From Gemmatimonadota bacterium (lineage in GTDB: Bacteria > Gemmatimonadota > Gemmatimonadetes > Gemmatimonadales > GWC2-71-9), in the NCBI GenBank assembly GCA_029262155.1, contig JAJCZW010000195.1, positions 1 through 50,791 of the forward strand: a stretch of 50,791 nt of DNA, written 5' to 3'. How positions within the stretch are numbered: position 1 is the first letter of the stretch; each line of letters begins with the position of its first letter. Shown one piece after another: positions 22,494-29,582 of the stretch. Below the pieces are notes generated by a model that worked only from the letters and a program-made list of their open reading frames with translations, did not search any database and was not told the DNA's origin. The translations under genes were made by a program, and so were the position numbers.

Positions 22494-23276
22494 CTATGCG
22501 TCGTCCGTGGGGCCATCCCCAACCTCTTCACCCACGACATCTGCATCCACCACATCGTCCTCACCCGTTCCCAACTGTTTCGCGGCCTCGTCACCGCCCG
22601 CTTCAAGCATCCCCATCTTGACCTTCAGGTCGAGGAGCTGTTGGTCGGCGGTGCCTTTGTATTCGAGTGCTTGGAACTGATCAACCAACGAGTCCCCTTG
22701 AAACTCCTCCTGGAGTTCCGCGGCCGCGAGCGCCTTGCGCTCGACGTCCTCGATTCGCTCGGCCATCCGCTCGAAGGTTTCAAACGCACTCTTGTCAGAC
22801 ATCCCAGCCATCGTCTCATGAATGCGCTGCTGCGCCTCGGCTCTCTTGGCCCGGGCAACCAGGATATTTTTCTTGCGCTTGGCCTCTTCGATCTTGTCGT
22901 GCAGGCCTCGAAGCGACCCCTTCAGTTTCTCGGTCTCGGCTTTATGCCGGACCCAAGTCTCGTGAAGTTGTTGAGCCCCCTGGAGGCTCTCGTTATATCG
23001 CATGAGCGCTTGGGTCGCGAGGTCGTCTCGCCCCTCTTGAACTGCAAGCATGGCGCGTCGCTCCCAATCTTCGGCCGATTTCTTCATCGCTTCGGCGTCG
23101 GCCTGGAGCTTCTTCTCGTCGGCGATCGCTGATGCCGCCTGTTGCTTCGCCTTCGCGAGCTGCGATTTCATATCGAGAATCAGTGTGTTGAGCATCTTCT
23201 CCGGATTCTCGGCCCGCGAGATCAGGTCGTTGATATTGGACCTAAACATCGTGGTAAAACGTTCCCAGATTCCCAT
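22494..23276 (-). CDS. pspA: PspA/IM30 family protein
   Basis: MGIWERF...NINDLISRAENPEKML, WERRAMLAVQEGRDDLA, long coiled coil, FERMAERIE. Confidence 0.95.
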   Translation of the reverse strand: MGIWERFTTMFRSNINDLISRAENPEKMLNTLILDMKSQLAKAKQQAASAIADEKKLQADAEAMKKSAEDWERRAMLAVQEGRDDLATQALMRYNESLQGAQQLHETWVRHKAETEKLKGSLRGLHDKIEEAKRKKNILVARAKRAEAQQRIHETMAGMSDKSAFETFERMAERIEDVERKALAAAELQEEFQGDSLVDQFQALEYKGTADQQLLDLKVKMGMLEAGGDEAAKQLGTGEDDVVDADVVGEEVGDGPTDDA

Positions 23277-23282
23277 CGCAGC

Positions 23283-23678
23283 TTACCTTTCGCGGTATGA
23301 CGCCAAGGCGCCCAGGTGAGAAGCGAGCGCCAAGGTGATCGAATCGAAACTGGCCTGGAACTCGGTGAAGTCCAGGTCGGCCAGTTCGTGTGCATCGGTC
23401 AGGACGATGTACTCGCCCTCCAACCCGTACGATCCATGGACCAGATCACTGGCGTTGAGTTCAAGAAGGTGGCGATACAGCTCTCCCCGACGCCCTTCAT
23501 CGCTTGGCGACTCCATCACGCGCACTCGCAACAGCACCACAGGCGGAGCGTAATGAACGACCACCTCGGCTCCGTCCGGCGTCTTGAGGACCCACAAACC
23601 CTCTTCCAATTCCTCCGTGCCAAGGTCGCCACCATCTAGGCGGTCCAGATAGGACTGGATGTCTTCCTGCGTGACCAT
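23283..23678 (-). CDS. CesT/YbjN-type (T3SS class I chaperone fold) protein
   Basis: Acidic 131-aa protein with LYRHLLELNASDLVHGSYGL and a C-terminal amphipathic helix. Confidence 0.75.
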   Translation of the reverse strand: MVTQEDIQSYLDRLDGGDLGTEELEEGLWVLKTPDGAEVVVHYAPPVVLLRVRVMESPSDEGRRGELYRHLLELNASDLVHGSYGLEGEYIVLTDAHELADLDFTEFQASFDSITLALASHLGALASYRER

Positions 23679-23758
23679 CGGCGCTCCTTCCGGCCGGTCG
23701 AGCGGCCCACAAACCAAACGGTGAAATGTACACCCCCCACCAGAGTCGGCACTACGGC

Positions 23759-24133
23759 CTACTCGCCCGCCCCCTCCCGCACTCCAGGTAACCGATCGAG
23801 ATCGCCGCGTTGGGCGAGGAGCCGCTCTGCGAAATCCACTCGATCCTCCAGTTCGGCGAGCCGTCCCTGGGACTGATCGAGATCGAAGAGACGCTCCTCG
23901 ATCTCATCCAAGCGCGCCATCTGTACCTCACCGGTGGTGATCTCGGGAGGGGCCCGGCGTAGAGCCAATCGGCGGCGGATTCCGAAAACAACTCCTGAAA
24001 TGCCGATGACCCCCGGGATAGCCCAGCCGGCGTCACTTCCGCCGACAACCTCACCCATCGCCACGGCAAGTGCGATGGTCACAACCACGTGAATGGCAAC
24101 ATCCCAGACGTCGAGCCCCAGCCGGCGGCTCAC
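23759..24133 (-). CDS. PspB-like membrane/coiled-coil protein, copy 7 (two TM segments)
   Basis: C-terminal RLAELEDRVDFAERLLA. Confidence 0.85.
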   Translation of the reverse strand: MSRRLGLDVWDVAIHVVVTIALAVAMGEVVGGSDAGWAIPGVIGISGVVFGIRRRLALRRAPPEITTGEVQMARLDEIEERLFDLDQSQGRLAELEDRVDFAERLLAQRGDLDRLPGVREGAGE

Positions 24134-24411
24134 GGATGCCTCCCGGACACCTCATCCTCTGGGGCTCCCACACTTGAGAGCAATCGCTCGGCAAAATCCA
24201 CGCGATCCTCCAGCTCCTGGAGTCGCTTCGCCACGTCTGGAAGCTCCTGAAGCTGGTCGGCGAGGTCTCCTGGGATGCTCTCTCCCATGCGGCCCTGGAT
24301 ACGTCGACCGATCGCCCGACCAATCGGCCCGAGGAAAAGAGCGGTCAACATGCCCGACCCGGCAAGAGTGGCCAGACCAATGGCAATCCACATCGTGCTC
24401 TCTGGGTTCAT
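24130..24411 (-). CDS. PspB-like membrane/coiled-coil protein, copy 6
   Basis: TM, GPIGRAIGRRIQG, LQELEDRVDFAERLLS. Confidence 0.85.
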   Translation of the reverse strand: MNPESTMWIAIGLATLAGSGMLTALFLGPIGRAIGRRIQGRMGESIPGDLADQLQELPDVAKRLQELEDRVDFAERLLSSVGAPEDEVSGRHP

Positions 24412-24740
24412 CTCTCACCCACATCGGTCTTGCCTTCGTGGAGTACCCGTTGGCTTTGTTGTGCCAGGAGTCGGTCGGAAAAATCGACCCGTTCCTCCAA
24501 TTCTGCCACGCGATTGTGGAGTTCATCGACCTCCTGAAGTCGATCCCGCACCTGATCCAGCTCGGCGGTGACCGCTTCGAATCCCGCGCGACCCTCGATC
24601 CGCCGCGCCCACGACCGGACCAAGGGGCGTAACAGAAAGAACCCCGCAGTGATCACCGCGATGCTGATCACCGCGATGACCTCTTCGGGAGGACCGCTTG
24701 GGGGAAAGGGTGGGAACGGTCCTTGGAATGTGAGGATCAT
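24408..24740 (-). CDS. PspB-like membrane/coiled-coil protein, copy 5
   Basis: TM, PLVRSWARRIEG, VAELEERVDFSDRLLA. Confidence 0.85.
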   Translation of the reverse strand: MILTFQGPFPPFPPSGPPEEVIAVISIAVITAGFFLLRPLVRSWARRIEGRAGFEAVTAELDQVRDRLQEVDELHNRVAELEERVDFSDRLLAQQSQRVLHEGKTDVGER

Positions 24741-24997
24741 TGTCCCCTATCCCCGTCCGGCAGGCCGGGCACCGTCCCCCGGTCAGCCAAAAGGCGCTCG
24801 GCAAAGTCCACTCGTTCGTGGAGTTCGGATACCTCTTCCCGCAATTGATGCAGCTCCTCTAAGACCTCGGGATCTTGGAGTGCGGACGGATGTCCTCGCA
24901 CCCGCTCCGCGAATGCTTTGCCGACCGGGCTCATGGAAAGGAGAAACAACGTCCCGCCGCCAAAGATGAAGATGATCGCTAGGACACCTTCCATCAC
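24737..24997 (-). CDS. PspB-like membrane/coiled-coil protein, copy 4
   Basis: TM, SPVGKAFAERVRG, VSELHERVDFAERLLA. Confidence 0.85.
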   Translation of the reverse strand: MMEGVLAIIFIFGGGTLFLLSMSPVGKAFAERVRGHPSALQDPEVLEELHQLREEVSELHERVDFAERLLADRGTVPGLPDGDRGQ

Positions 24998-25014
24998 GTT
25001 CTTATCCTCTCCGT

Positions 25015-25272
25015 CTAAGGGGTAGCAGGATCTGCCGGGTTTGGCAGTGCGGAAGCCTCTGTAAGTAACCGTTCAGTAAAATCGAGGCGCTCCTGAACCT
25101 CGACCATTTCGTTTCGGAGCCGCTCCAGTTCGTCAAGCACTTCGGGATCGGGCTCCGGTTGAGCACTCCGGCCTCGAATACGATCGCTAATCGCTCGACC
25201 GATCGGACTAAACGAGATCGCGCAAACCGTCCCTCCGCCGAAGATGAGAATAATGGCGAGGATATCCTCCAC
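25015..25272 (-). CDS. PspB-like membrane/coiled-coil protein, copy 3
   Basis: TM, SPIGRAISDRIRG, MVEVQERLDFTERLLT. Confidence 0.85.
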   Translation of the reverse strand: MEDILAIILIFGGGTVCAISFSPIGRAISDRIRGRSAQPEPDPEVLDELERLRNEMVEVQERLDFTERLLTEASALPNPADPATP

Positions 25273-25274
25273 TC

Positions 25275-25559
25275 CTAGCCCCCCGCCTTGGGAGAGGTGC
25301 CCGAACCTGCCGCTAATAACCGCTCGGCAAAATCGAGGCGCTCTTCACTCTCGAGCAATCGCTGTTCCATCTGATCGACTCGATCGGTCATCTCCTGCAG
25401 GGACAACACCAGCTCGGCATCATCGCTCGACGCGCCATGAATCCTTCGACCGATCGCCTGCCCCACCGGACCTTGGAATACTCGCATAACCGCAAACCCA
25501 ACCATGCCGGTGATGAGAATCCCGGTTACCATCCCCGCAAACGGTATGAGATCGCCCAT
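25275..25559 (-). CDS. PspB-like membrane/coiled-coil protein, copy 2
   Basis: TM, GPVGQAIGRRIHG, LLESEERLDFAERLLA. Confidence 0.85.
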   Translation of the reverse strand: MGDLIPFAGMVTGILITGMVGFAVMRVFQGPVGQAIGRRIHGASSDDAELVLSLQEMTDRVDQMEQRLLESEERLDFAERLLAAGSGTSPKAGG

Positions 25560-25571
25560 GCGTGTTTGACC

Positions 25572-25847
25572 TTAAATTGGCGTGTTCGCGCCCGCGGGAG
25601 GTGTACCGACATTCCCCAGCAAGCGCTCAGTGAAATCGATGCGTTCATGAGCTTCGCCCAACTCTTGCCGGAGCCGATCAAGCTCATCTTCAATCGCTTC
25701 GAGCCTGGCAGCCGGTCCCCCGGCATCCCGGTCGCCACCGATGCGCCGGGCCATCGCCTTTCCAATCGCGGTCCGCGAGAGCAAGATGAGGCCACCAAAA
25801 AACACCGACAAAACCGGAATGAAAAGGACGAGCGTGTGCCTATCCAT
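25572..25847 (-). CDS. PspB-like membrane/coiled-coil protein, copy 1
   Basis: TM, TAIGKAMARRIGG, LGEAHERIDFTERLLG; start at MDRHT. Confidence 0.85.
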   Translation of the reverse strand: MDRHTLVLFIPVLSVFFGGLILLSRTAIGKAMARRIGGDRDAGGPAARLEAIEDELDRLRQELGEAHERIDFTERLLGNVGTPPAGANTPI

Positions 25848-25911: not shown

Positions 25912-26133
25912 CTAGCTCTCAACCAGCTCCACCATCTGGATGTCGCCGAGCGAAATGGCGATTTCCGTGTCGTCAATCCCCGCAGGTCGCAAGTAGACCT
26001 CATGGGCAGTGATATGGGTATCAACACTTGTGGGGACGCCCATCACTATCGTGTTATCGGTGGTGACCACACGGACCATCTGATCATGCCCCCCGGCCCA
26101 ATCGAGCACCTCTACCATCTGCTCATACGTCAT
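25912..26133 (-). CDS. Small acidic hypothetical protein (73 aa)
   Basis: GAGGAGG RBS before the ATG; protein-like composition (helix followed by beta strands); fills the gap in a co-oriented run. Confidence 0.7.
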   Translation of the reverse strand: MTYEQMVEVLDWAGGHDQMVRVVTTDNTIVMGVPTSVDTHITAHEVYLRPAGIDDTEIAISLGDIQMVELVES

Positions 26134-26160
26134 TGAGGCCTCCTCTTGGTCCACCCATGT

Positions 26161-28425
26161 CTATGGTGTAAGCCCCTCCCGCTGGGGCCGGCGCATCAGA
26201 TGGTCGTCCAAATACCGGGTCAATAACTCCTGGAGGTGGAGTGAGGTCATGCCACCGGAGATGGAATGCGTCCGATTCGGATACGCCATGAACTGGAACG
26301 GCTTGTTGGCATCCACCAACGCGTTGATCAAAGCTTCTGAATTCTGGTAGTGCACATTGTCGTCTCCCGTACCGTGTACCAGAAGTAGGTCGCCTCGCAT
26401 ACCGGAGACGTAGCTGAGTGGGGACCCTTTATCGTAGCCCTCCCGGTTGTCCTGGGGGAGTCCGTTGTACCGTTCGGTATAGATGTTGTCATAGTACTGC
26501 CAGTGGGTCACCGGGGCGACAGCTATCGCCATGTGAAACGTCCCTGGTGCCCGAAAGAGTCCATTGAGGCTCATGAATCCACCGTAGCTCCAGCCCCAAA
26601 TCCCGATCCGACTCGGATCAACCCATGGGCGTTCCGCAAGGGCCCTCGCGGCAGCGGCCTGATCTTCTGTTTCAATCACCCCCAGGTGACCGTACACCAC
26701 CTTCTTGAAGTCGCGACCGCGGGCTCCGGTCCCCCGATTATCGACACTGGCGACAACATACCCCTTTTGAGTCAACATCAGATGCCAGAGGTATCGGGCC
26801 CCCCCCCATCGATCAAGGACGGTCTGGCTCCCGGGGCCGCCGTAGACATAGAACAAAACCGGGTAGCGCCTTGTGGAATCAAAATCGGCTGGCTTCATCA
26901 CCCACGCGTTGAGCGCAGTCCCATTCGCCAGGGAGATCGTCTCGAAGGTGACCGGGCCGCGGTGGAGGGCCTTCACCCGAGCCTGGAGGGCGGTGTTGGC
27001 CACGAGAGTCCGCACGGAACGGTGATCAGGTAGATGGACCAGATCGGTGGATGGCGGAAGGCCAAAGGCGGAGAAGGTATGGAAGGCCCACTGGGAATTC
27101 GGTGAGACGACGTAGCTGTGGGACCCGGACACGGCAGGAGAGAGCCGCTCCGGGCTCCCGCGACCGTCCAATCGCACTCGGAAGAGGTAGCGCTCGGTCG
27201 GATTGTCCGGCGACGCGATGTAATAGACGTACCCACCACGGGTATCGATGGAAACCACGTTCAGGACATCGAAGGCGCCTGGAGTGAGAAGGCGGATATC
27301 CTTGCCATCTCGGCTCACGCGATAGATATGATTCCATCCGTCGCGTTCCGAAGCCCAGGTAAACGCTTTCCCTCCATCCGTCCACACCATGTCATCCACC
27401 ACATCGACCCAGGCACTGTCCTTCTCGACCAGAATCGACCGCACCGCTCCGGTGTTGGCGTCGCCCATCAGAAAATCGAGGCGGTTTTGGAGGCGATTGA
27501 GGTACTGGATCACGACTTCATCACTGCGGGCAGCCCATTCCATCCGAGCCGGGTAGTTGTTGCGAGGATCGCCCTTCAACGCAAGCCACTGTATCGGACC
27601 ACCCGATGCGGAGATTACCCCTACCCGGGCGGCTGAGTTGGTCTCGCCGGCCTTGGGATATTGGACTGGCACAACCTGGGAGTAGAGTGAGTCAGTGGTG
27701 TTGATCAAATCGAACTCGCGGATGCCAGTGGCGTCGAGTTGCCAAAACGCGATACGTTGACCGTCAGGGCTCCACCGCCATCCATCCCGGAGATCTAACT
27801 CCTCTTCGTACACCCAGTCGAACGTGCCGTTGATGGTGGTTCGTGATCCGTTGGTTGTCAGACGGGTGATGGCGCCAGTGGTCAGCTCCTCGACATAGAG
27901 ATCGTGCTCACGCACATACCCCACCCGCTCTCCGTCGGGGGAAAATTTGGCGAACATGAGCGTCGACGGCTGAGCTTCGACTCCACCGAGCTTGGTAAGC
28001 CGACCGGAGGCGCGCTCGAGCACCCAATAGTCTCCTCGGGTATTCCGTCTCCACACCCGTTCACTGTTGGTGTAGATCAAGAGTCGGCCATGATCGGATG
28101 ACCAGTCATAATCTTCGATCGAGAGTGGGCGGGTCCCCCCGGTGGGGATGAGGTCGGCCGTCGCGATCAGCACCTGCCGAGCGCCGCTCTCGGTCTCATA
28201 TCGAACGAGATCTCGGCCACCCCCATTCGCCGGTTCGAGCGTGGTATACGCTTGGCCATCGTCCAACCATCGGGTTGGGCCCAAGAAGTCGCCGCGAAAC
28301 TCGGCGCTGGCGTAAATGCGCTCCAGGGTCAGTGGCGCTGGGTTGGGTGCCTGAGCCGCCACCGAGGTCGTCAGGAGACCGAATAAACCAAGGGTACGTA
28401 AGGAACGGAGAATCGTGGACGTCAT
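26161..28425 (-). CDS. S9B dipeptidyl peptidase IV family, exported
   Basis: DWVYEEE, YPKAG, YGGPGSQ, GWSYGG nucleophile, HGTGDDNVH, HSI; signal peptide from MTSTIL. Confidence 0.96.
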   Translation of the reverse strand: MTSTILRSLRTLGLFGLLTTSVAAQAPNPAPLTLERIYASAEFRGDFLGPTRWLDDGQAYTTLEPANGGGRDLVRYETESGARQVLIATADLIPTGGTRPLSIEDYDWSSDHGRLLIYTNSERVWRRNTRGDYWVLERASGRLTKLGGVEAQPSTLMFAKFSPDGERVGYVREHDLYVEELTTGAITRLTTNGSRTTINGTFDWVYEEELDLRDGWRWSPDGQRIAFWQLDATGIREFDLINTTDSLYSQVVPVQYPKAGETNSAARVGVISASGGPIQWLALKGDPRNNYPARMEWAARSDEVVIQYLNRLQNRLDFLMGDANTGAVRSILVEKDSAWVDVVDDMVWTDGGKAFTWASERDGWNHIYRVSRDGKDIRLLTPGAFDVLNVVSIDTRGGYVYYIASPDNPTERYLFRVRLDGRGSPERLSPAVSGSHSYVVSPNSQWAFHTFSAFGLPPSTDLVHLPDHRSVRTLVANTALQARVKALHRGPVTFETISLANGTALNAWVMKPADFDSTRRYPVLFYVYGGPGSQTVLDRWGGARYLWHLMLTQKGYVVASVDNRGTGARGRDFKKVVYGHLGVIETEDQAAAARALAERPWVDPSRIGIWGWSYGGFMSLNGLFRAPGTFHMAIAVAPVTHWQYYDNIYTERYNGLPQDNREGYDKGSPLSYVSGMRGDLLLVHGTGDDNVHYQNSEALINALVDANKPFQFMAYPNRTHSISGGMTSLHLQELLTRYLDDHLMRRPQREGLTP

Positions 28426-28594
28426 GAGAGAACCATTTGGAGTTGGGGGACCCTCCCCAATGGAAGGACCTGCCCCGTATTCTAGGGTCGGGAGGGGAAA
28501 TGGGAAGGAGGGCATAGGAAATGGGAACGCGTGGGAGTGAGCACTGAACGAACCACTCATCACGATCTACATTGGAGTGTTCGGCTGCGAGCTG

Positions 28595-29176
28595 CTAATC
28601 GACCTCTGCCAGTGCCCGTTTGATCAGTTCCTGGAAACCGGGTCCCGATGGGTGACCCAGATATACGCTGCTGCCGACCACGAACGTCGGCGTGCCCCGG
28701 ACCCCGGCCCTCCTCGCAGCGGCGATGTCTTCGCTGACGCGATCCGCGAACCTGGCATCCTTCACACAATCCTCGAACTCGCCCACGTCCTGAATGCCGG
28801 CTCGTCTAGCGAAGTCACTCCAGTCGAGCACCCCCAGAGAATCCTGTGCCGCATACACCACTTCGATGAAGGTACCGAACTTTCCCTCGACGTCCGCGCA
28901 CTCGGCCGCCAGCGCGGCCTCGACCATAGCGCAGAATGGGCATTCGAGATCCACGAATTCCACGATCTTCAGTTGCGCGTCTTCGGGGCCGATGAGGTGA
29001 CCGTGGGCTGTAAGTTCGCGCGCGATCTTCGGGTCTATCTCGCGTACGGAGGAGTTCGTGGCCCCACCTGTCGGCGCGGCGGTCAGTTCCCGACGCACGA
29101 CAAGCCCCGTGATCACCACTGCGCACACCACCAGCACCCCGACCGCCGTGTTCTGGTACAACTCCGAGCGCCTCAT
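28595..29176 (-). pseudogene. DsbA/thioredoxin-fold protein with an apparent in-frame internal deletion
   Basis: IVEFVDLECPFC runs almost directly into EAALAAECA, lacking the usual helix and xxHFPL segment; GVRGTPTF retained. Confidence 0.6.
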
Positions 29177-29582
29177 GGTACCCTCCTGCTGGTAGCCAGA
29201 CGACCCGGGTAAAGGCGGTACAGTTGGACATACTCCACCCCCATCTCGTCCCTCCGTTGGCGACGACGATTCGTCCGTCGGAAAGGCGAAGCGCACCGGT
29301 CACCCGAAAGAGCGCTGCACCGGACGCCCCATCTTCGGAACCGATCTCCACCAGAGGATGGTCTGCGACACGCCAACCGTCTCCATCCGTCCATAAACCG
29401 GCCCCACGGTTCTCTACAACCTGTACGCCCGAGCTATCGCGAATGATGGGGCCTTGTGCTTCCCGCACACCGTCCCCGTGGCGACACCCAGCCACGGCGA
29501 TCCAACAGAGCCCGCCAAAGAGGACAACACGTCGGCTATCCGGAAGCAACCAGACGGCGACGACCGCCTTACCACACCCCAT
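29173..29582 (-). pseudogene. Remnant of a 6-bladed beta-propeller lipoprotein; N- and C-termini joined out of frame
   Basis: N-terminus AVAGC...RDSSGVQVVEN...EIG...ALRLSDGRIVVANGGT; immediately after, in another frame, a family-like C-terminus RDEMGVEYVQLYRL whose stop overlaps the dsbA ATG. Confidence 0.65.

Follow-up and report, generated by a model that had tools for sequence, protein, structure and literature searches.

The window analysed here is a stretch of 50,791 nucleotides (nt) of DNA from a Gemmatimonadota bacterium (Gemmatimonadales, GWC2-71-9), being positions 1 to 50,791 of the forward strand of contig JAJCZW010000195.1 (assembly GCA_029262155.1), whose source genome is designated G000 in this analysis. 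On its minus strand (25847..23759) is an array of seven intact open reading frames (ORFs) of 85-124 amino acids (aa), followed in order by a gene for a CesT/Tir-like chaperone and by pspA, which is the sole PspA_IM30 gene found in G000 (Table 1). The latter two genes are 6 nt apart. Within the array, copies 1 to 4 lie 12, 2 and 17 nt apart, whereas copies 4 to 7 are joined by three 4-nt start/stop overlaps (ATGA, ATGA and GTGA). This tight spacing points to a single transcript, and the array genes are probably both co-transcribed and translationally coupled. The array is a real and conserved, and apparently undescribed, variant of a Psp membrane module.

Table 1. Features of the array locus in the window (positions on the 50,791-nt stretch)
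Feature	Position	Strand	Description
Copy 1	25572..25847	-	91 aa with internal ATG; anchor, AIGKAMARRIGG helix, coiled coil leading to HERIDFTERLL; family hidden Markov model E 1e-23
Copy 2	25275..25559	-	94 aa; IPFAGMVTG anchor, GPVGQAIGRRIHG helix, EERLDFAERLL
Copy 3	25015..25272	-	85 aa, GTG start; MEDILAI..FGGG anchor, QERLDFTERLL
Copy 4	24737..24997	-	86 aa; MEGVLAI..FGGG anchor, HERVDFAERLL
Copy 5	24408..24740	-	110 aa; proline-rich N-terminus, anchor, RPLVRSWARRIEG helix, EERVDFSDRLL
Copy 6	24130..24411	-	93 aa; GPIGRAIGRRIQG helix, EDRVDFAERLL
Copy 7	23759..24133	-	124 aa, GTG start; two hydrophobic segments, EDRVDFAERLL
CesT/Tir-like chaperone gene	23283..23717	-	PF22550 (CesT_Tir_1), E 5.3e-22; ORF opens with TTG
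pspA	22494..23276	-	260 aa; PF04012, E 4.7e-44
Weak hairpin and T-run	23719..23742	-	within the 41 nt that separate copy 7 from the CesT-like gene; consensus scan only
Conserved 80-aa ORF	25912..26154	-	5′ of the array, soluble-looking; begins 6 nt after the S9 peptidase gene
DPP-IV/S9 peptidase	26161-28563	-	800 aa; array-upstream neighbour, envelope protein
DsbA/thioredoxin-like protein	28595-29296	-	membrane-anchored; array-upstream neighbour, envelope protein

All seven copies are built alike. A hydrophobic anchor is followed by a basic amphipathic helix (P-[IV]-G-[RKQ]-A-x-x-x-R-I-x-G) and then, after an acidic linker that varies between copies, by a terminal helix, which carries the C-terminal block [EDQH][ED]R[VLI]DF[ATS][ED]RLL. 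The ending EDRVDFAERLL is found in two copies (6 and 7) and the other five endings occur once each. A preliminary description of this DNA had given the number, sizes, spacings and overlaps of the ORFs, with which the ORF list and a seven-copy alignment agree, and the C-terminal motifs in that alignment are exactly those that it cited. Pairwise identity among the copies is 29-44%, with eight invariant columns (G, E, R, D, F, R, L, L). Across 120 members of the wider family, the juxtamembrane helix has near-invariant P, A, R and G, and the C-terminal block has near-invariant E, E, R, D, F, E, R and L. There is one hydrophobic segment per copy and two in copy 7 (17-residue Kyte-Doolittle mean >=1.5). 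For copy 6, AlphaFold2 with an alignment of 120 relatives gave a model of mean predicted local distance difference test (pLDDT) score 87.2, with helices at residues 3-27, 29-43 and 48-82. Because basic residues follow the anchor, the proteins are predicted to be bitopic with an N-out/C-in topology, the short N-terminus lying outside the cell. A search of the sequences in the PDB with the family profile gave no solved relative, the best match being a lectin neck coiled coil (E 0.0013). A TatA-like reading of the juxtamembrane G-P-x-G-R-A helix was also considered and rejected; no TatA family is listed for the 120 members.

The seven-copy profile, run against 1.84 billion proteins, matched 2386 sequences at E<=0.001, each representing one cluster at 50% identity, and 447 at the stricter E<=1e-10 (a word-index search with copy 6 returned itself and one relative, and the profile search was used for the family). 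No Pfam family covers these proteins, the seven copies giving weak coiled-coil matches only, and the commonest Pfam match among the 120 members is DUF5798, found in five. Among ten members examined for their cluster names, two are called “hypothetical protein”, one “Tfp pilus assembly protein PilO” and the rest are unnamed; the PilO name is taken as a coiled-coil misannotation. The analysis marks out a large protein family (about 2400 50%-identity clusters) without a Pfam entry, whose names are “hypothetical” or misleading in the few records examined. Some family members, namely P0004 (120 aa), P0025 (262 aa) and P0037 (182 aa), have two or three coiled-coil blocks per polypeptide, and these could be fused neighbours or the result of gene-calling read-through.

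The ratio of non-synonymous to synonymous substitution rates (dN/dS) is 0.06-0.26 in all five ortholog pairs compared between two congeneric genomes; in comparisons against the window itself dS was saturated. Copy 4 and its ortholog in G001 are 78% identical. The genes are real and under purifying selection. The idea that they are chance open frames in GC-rich DNA draws on the many overlapping spurious ORFs in this 60% GC window, but it is rejected, with a probability that is next to nil, in view of the thousands of homologs, the excess of synonymous over non-synonymous changes, the conservation of the motif and the confident structural model.

The pspA neighbourhoods of 36 relatives were scanned with the family profile, the PspA and CesT-like proteins of the window and the 80-aa ORF. 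In the 29 genomes (window included) of the window's own family, f1, and of a second family, f3, an array lies directly 5′ of [cesT]-pspA on the same strand without exception, although in G017 the contig ends inside pspA. These arrays hold 1-9 family genes each, 147 in total. A second sample, which overlaps the first since both use the same species representatives, consisted of the best 80 loci in genome_contigs; here 78 loci have 2-14 tandem copies and the remaining two are single dispersed copies. The pspA gene lies downstream in 68 of the 78, that is in 68/68 of the arrays with enough downstream DNA, and in the other ten the available DNA stops at the array or at cesT. In a manual comparison of coordinates in 50 further f1 genomes, the best family match shared contig and strand with pspA and lay within about 3.3 kb on its 5′ side in 49, the exception being G156. 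The proposal in the preliminary description that the array heads a pspA operon is borne out by the linkage in these samples.

The pspA locus was also examined in a sister family of genomes, f2. No family gene was found in the 8.7 kb around pspA in any of eight f2 genomes. All eight keep pspA, which is preceded by cesT in six and stands alone in two. At five of these eight loci, ORFs of 213-260 aa and 294 aa, with N-termini resembling annotated serine dehydratases of f1, are present 5′ on the same strand and occupy the place held by the array in f1. This serine dehydratase pair also occurs in five f1 genomes, just 5′ of the array. The array was therefore either cleanly inserted at a point 5′ of cesT-pspA or cleanly lost from that point in f2.

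The position of the CesT-like gene raises another explanation, in which the CesT/Tir-like chaperone has the array proteins as its clients. It would bind their shared C-terminal block and control their insertion or turnover, PspA handling the consequences. This gene lies between array and pspA in 20/29 genomes of the first sample and a cesT homolog does so in 60/68 loci of the second, and chaperones of CesT type are described as mediators of protein-protein interactions in the available parts of PMC11237479. However, it is missing from between array and pspA in 9/29 genomes and 8/68 loci, and CesT-PspA dyads occur with no array in 6/8 of the f2 genomes, and we regard the client explanation as improbable. 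As to the gene itself, its true start is probably near position 23678 rather than at the TTG, because its relatives start at an internal MVTQED.

The paralogs within the arrays fall into subtypes. In a FastTree phylogeny of the 147 array members (99 aligned columns, many forks unresolved), copies 1 and 2 belong to an 18-row clade with 95% support that takes the first and second array positions, orthologs of copy 1 being first in G001, G002 and G004. Copies 3 and 4 are in a 22-row clade (97% support) and copy 5 in a 9-row clade (87%). The clade of copy 7 has eight rows and 100% support. All its members are next to pspA in their arrays or one place removed from that end, and in five of the seven arrays represented they form the last gene. 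Two congeners, G001 and G002, have window copies 1-5 in the same order; G001 also retains copy 6, and the sixth and last gene of G002 is an ortholog of copy 7. The two-copy arrays of G019 and G023 each have one gene of copy 4 type, the second gene being of copy 5 type in G023 and in G019 a member of the wider group containing copies 5 and 7. Judged from this tree, the subtypes are orthologous across genera and their array position is conserved. Old, intact and diverged paralogs maintained by selection, as first proposed for this locus, are consistent with both the tree and the dN/dS values, and there are recent duplicates too, such as the final two genes of the G009 array.

Such recent duplicates, together with variable copy number and the small size and membrane character of the proteins, could be taken to indicate a mobile, defence or toxic small-membrane-peptide cassette, of holin-like or abortive-infection-like nature, that itself induces the phage-shock response. 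The evidence otherwise makes this very improbable. None of the seven copies has a match in PADLOC and there is a single weak PHROG match (E 0.0059), so that the tie to phages and pore formers that had been suggested for the array finds no backing in these databases. The flanks are of housekeeping type, consisting of an S9 peptidase, a serine dehydratase and a long ORF with an apparently UvrA-like N-terminus, and both position and orthology are conserved across genera under purifying selection. PspA itself gave a weak coiled-coil match in PADLOC, to JetC (E 9.2e-4).

The family is widespread in the phylum. The seven-copy profile has matches in 38/41 related genomes, and of the best 80 loci in the species-representative genome collection 79 are titled Gemmatimonadota or Gemmatimonadales. 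In a phylum sample, 230/301 genomes have a family match at E<=1e-6 (these tallies include G083, G174, G199 and G120, which are marked unpublished and are not the sole basis of any conclusion). All 125 genomes of f1 have such matches, from two to at least 17 each, with PspA in 124/125. In f2, 37/69 have a family match, nearly all of them single, and 66/69 have PspA. The corresponding figures for family and PspA respectively are 3/3 and 2/3 in f3, 6/6 and 6/6 in f4, 1/1 and 1/1 in f5, 11/23 and 22/23 in f6, 43/47 and 45/47 in f7, and 3/4 and 4/4 in f8, while f9-f12 have 0/22 and 1/22. The family and PspA share a coarse range across the phylum, which is weak evidence of association because kin are not independent. 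One locus titled Miltoncostaeaceae (L068, on a 1.5-Mb contig) has the same seven-copy array with pspA. Its spacing is nearly that of the Gemmatimonadota loci L058 and L093, which suggests either that this genome is mislabelled or misbinned or that the locus was transferred into Actinomycetota.

Regarding the relation to known Psp proteins, the array copies, like Escherichia coli PspB, are small, have at the N-terminus an anchor helix leading into a cytoplasmic one, and are encoded with pspA. The end of E. coli PspB (...RERIQALESILD) has the same E-R-x4-E-x2-L spacing as ERVDFAERLL of the array, and the PspB-like architecture of anchor and helical domain given in the preliminary description can be upheld to this extent. 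PspB is about 75 aa long against 85-124 aa for the array copies, and the P-x-G-R-A..R..G helix and the D-F pair of the array family are absent from the enterobacterial PspB alignment. In a protein-language-model Atlas, PspB clusters are the nearest named family for copies 6 (0.79) and 4 (0.80), which are to be regarded as leads only.

The closest connection is provided by P0280, a dispersed 94-aa paralog in G000 (C43:2373-2654; locus L010:1342-1626) located just 3′ of a Ser/Thr protein kinase gene and not near pspA. Its anchor ends in WLHLHYRRR, comparable to WLWLHYSNR of E. coli PspB, and its tail is HERIDFTERLL. It matches the family profile at E 2e-8 and Pfam PspB with 27.2 bits, above the cut-off of 25.6, and PspB is the top Pfam match in 7/8 of its orthologs, all of these below the cut-off. 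In profile-profile comparisons (hhalign), the P0280 subfamily alignment (A4) aligns with PspB at 81.9% probability (E 1.1e-5) over 24 columns at the anchor end, although this PspB alignment is narrow, and the family alignment (A2) aligns with A4 at 97.8% (E 1.3e-12) over 28 columns of the C-terminal block. Membership of the family in the PspB superfamily is, on these sequence comparisons, narrowly favoured, a very divergent branch of the PspB lineage being its most likely placement. The bridging subfamily would extend PspB beyond Proteobacteria.

Taken with the linkage to pspA, this leads to the interpretation that we hold with a little more belief than doubt, namely that the array is a lineage-specific expansion of small bitopic membrane proteins of the PspB lineage which act as a receptor or anchor for PspA. 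A number of observations weigh against it. Pfam PspB (PF06667) is matched by none of the seven copies at E<=1. The TIGR02976 model is matched by three of the seven (copy 6, E 4.8e-5; copy 4, E 0.0014 and 18.9 bits; copy 3, E 0.047), the best score being 23.6 bits against a cut-off of 51.7. At E<=0.01 this PspB model matches 15/120 members, none near the cut-off, and GspM, another anchor-plus-coiled-coil model, matches 14/120. The direct comparison of the family (A2) with PspB (A3) gives a probability of 12.9% (E 0.0022) in a different register, the PspB alignment again being narrow (29 enterobacterial sequences, 82-93% identical to E. coli PspB; effective number of sequences, Neff, 1.4). A six-frame TIGR02976 scan of the 41 relatives found no match above the cut-off in any genome; in favour of kinship with PspB, however, are its 26 sub-threshold matches in 17 genomes, 14 of these matches lying inside pspA-linked arrays and two on dispersed family members, with E. 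coli as the sole match among 14 control genomes. The P0280 subfamily is a putative bridge that falls short of strict transitive homology and of proof, because its PspB and family matches cover separate regions. The earlier claim of PspB homology is weakly supported, through this subfamily, of which P0280 passes the Pfam cut-off; no array copy does. In gene order, E. coli has pspA-pspB-pspC and here the order is array-cesT-pspA, with the array upstream of pspA. Kin are not independent, and the linkage counts exceed the true number of independent events. Finally, there are members away from pspA: the three complete f7 genomes have 3-5 members each, all 0.1-2 Mb from pspA, and G000 carries four dispersed members in other contexts.

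In G000, these dispersed members are P0280 behind its Ser/Thr kinase gene, one by an ABC transporter, a TM2-domain fusion, and a variant near uvrC. The fusion (C150:26727-27116; L142:4725-5108) is a 127-aa protein with a TM2 domain (PF05154, E 3.9e-19) and the C-terminal block (LQERQDFTERLL), and because of this fusion the block appears to behave as a portable module. The variant near uvrC (C151:30642-31052) has the pattern DSPIGRALA...ENQFLQRLF. In several Gemmatimonadota (L147, L148, L153, L157) this variant, of the type LLIPILAIVLDSPVGRALA...EE.xFLxxLL, keeps a place behind bshC and in front of murJ or uvrC, the bshC-variant-murJ placement being conserved in three genomes. A similar single variant is found directly 5′ of cesT-pspA in the f5 genome G078 (L155:4762-5055), and this triad looks like an ancestral, single-copy form of the module.

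These members bear on the main competing explanation, that the proteins are generic membrane-tethered coiled-coil scaffolds which by themselves organise the inner membrane or make it stiffer, the C-terminal block being an oligomerisation trigger and the genes being co-regulated with pspA under envelope stress while their products make no contact with PspA. The unlinked members in all three complete f7 genomes are in keeping with this, as are the occurrence of the motif in a protein with a TM2 domain and in neighbours of transporters, of a rhomboid and of a kinase, and the conserved place of the variant between bshC and murJ in three genomes. So also is the lack of a PspC linked to pspA and of a sigma-54 consensus 5′ of the array. 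PspC (PF04024) is above the cut-off in 6/41 genomes and the sole match in G000 is on another contig (C257), which gives no support to the PspC partner that had been envisaged. (The 41-genome scans for the family, PspA, TIGR02976 and PspC include G016, which is marked unpublished.) On the other hand, in every f1 and f3 genome examined the array is found only at the pspA locus, its insertion point is exactly 5′ of cesT-pspA, and the tight spacing suggests one transcript, and the scaffold explanation is in our estimation doubtful.

To our knowledge, the targeting of PspA, the bacterial ESCRT-III, to damaged membrane is understood in a few model systems, each with a single small membrane partner. 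PspB/PspC, LiaI and PspM have a receptor role for PspA in other phyla, LiaI and PspM acting as anchors for PspA homologs. For the array, a receptor or anchor of PspB lineage could operate as follows. The family has multiplied 5′ of the CesT/Tir-like-PspA dyad in two Gemmatimonadales families, and the paralogs would form homo- or hetero-oligomeric coiled coils at the inner membrane face through their shared C-terminal block. The diversified anchors and N-termini may report different bilayer states, and the assembly as a whole would be the receptor or anchor in the membrane by which the ESCRT-III-like PspA is recruited or released, the CesT-like protein, where present, possibly being an optional chaperone. 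A complex prediction of PspA residues 1-225 (36-row alignment) with copy 6 residues 27-93 (120-row alignment), run without controls, gave ipSAE values of 0.00 and 0.01, which count neither way. A stronger form of the proposal, which we think unlikely, is that of a combinatorial receptor for the bacterial ESCRT-III, in which the orthologous paralogs of conserved position would co-assemble through the ER.DF.ERLL block into hetero-oligomers, with differing anchors that sense distinct bilayer defects and a common cytoplasmic face that nucleates or releases PspA polymers, all without PspC, PspF or sigma-54. If true, this would be a Psp control logic not known from any studied system.

With regard to the surroundings of the array, no sigma-54 consensus (TGGCAC-N5-TTGC, up to 2 mismatches) is present 5′ of either copy 1 or the 80-aa ORF. 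The region's two matches fall within the coding sequence of copies 1 and 2, and a sigma-70 consensus scan gave no candidate promoter. The 80-aa ORF has no Pfam or NCBIfam match. A homolog is found 5′ of the array in 14/29 genomes, and it was rejected as a member of the module, being probably a mere syntenic neighbour, because in five of these genomes serine dehydratase genes part it from the array. In relatives, such serine dehydratase genes replace the S9 peptidase and DsbA-like pair as array-upstream neighbours.

There are several points of comparison with described Psp systems. Searches of the literature for PspA, PspB or the phage shock response in Gemmatimonadota, and for PspB paralogs, found nothing relevant, supplementary and web neighbourhood data not being covered, and the family is undescribed in the literature searched. 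The string “Gemmatimonad” does not occur in the main text of Ravi et al. (2024, mSystems; PMC11237479), its supplementary lineage neighbourhoods aside, or in the available part of Popp et al. (2022; PMC9239133). The CesT/Tir-PspA dyad (YjfI/YjfJ type) is described by Ravi et al. (2024), and the array locus is alike in having a CesT_Tir_1 gene immediately 5′ of pspA. However, in the parts of that paper available the dyad is accompanied by band-7/flotillin, AAA+ ATPase and YqiJ-type proteins and not by a PspB-like array. The same parts report PspB to be rare outside Proteobacteria, and report duplicates of PspB within pspFABC operons and a divergent PspB fused to PspC. With these duplicates, too, there are two or more PspB-type genes to a psp operon, but, as far as those parts go, they sit with PspC and PspF, whereas the arrays have up to 14 diverged copies (29-44% identity in the window) and no PspC or PspF in the operon, no search having been aimed at PspF. 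Compared with the pspABC operon, the array lacks both an adjacent PspC and an upstream sigma-54 consensus, and in place of the single proteobacterial PspB there are 1-14 tandem diverged copies. The PspM model of mycobacteria also matched copy 7 faintly (E 0.042; 13.8 bits, where the cut-off is 80), which probably reflects composition only. LiaI of Bacillus (with LiaH) and PspM of Mycobacterium (with PspA) are small integral membrane proteins encoded with a PspA homolog, and a figure legend of PMC11237479 names them as its membrane partners. What the array adds to these is a phylum-level lineage that retains a conserved and ordered set of up to 14 diverged putative partners, with one invariant cytoplasmic block and no pspA-linked PspC, and if the paralogs do dock PspA they would offer a natural series for the determinants of PspA recognition and for the membrane signals that are sensed. 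The likeness of the array to LiaI and PspM is one of functional analogy only, each of the latter being one partner and not a set of paralogs.

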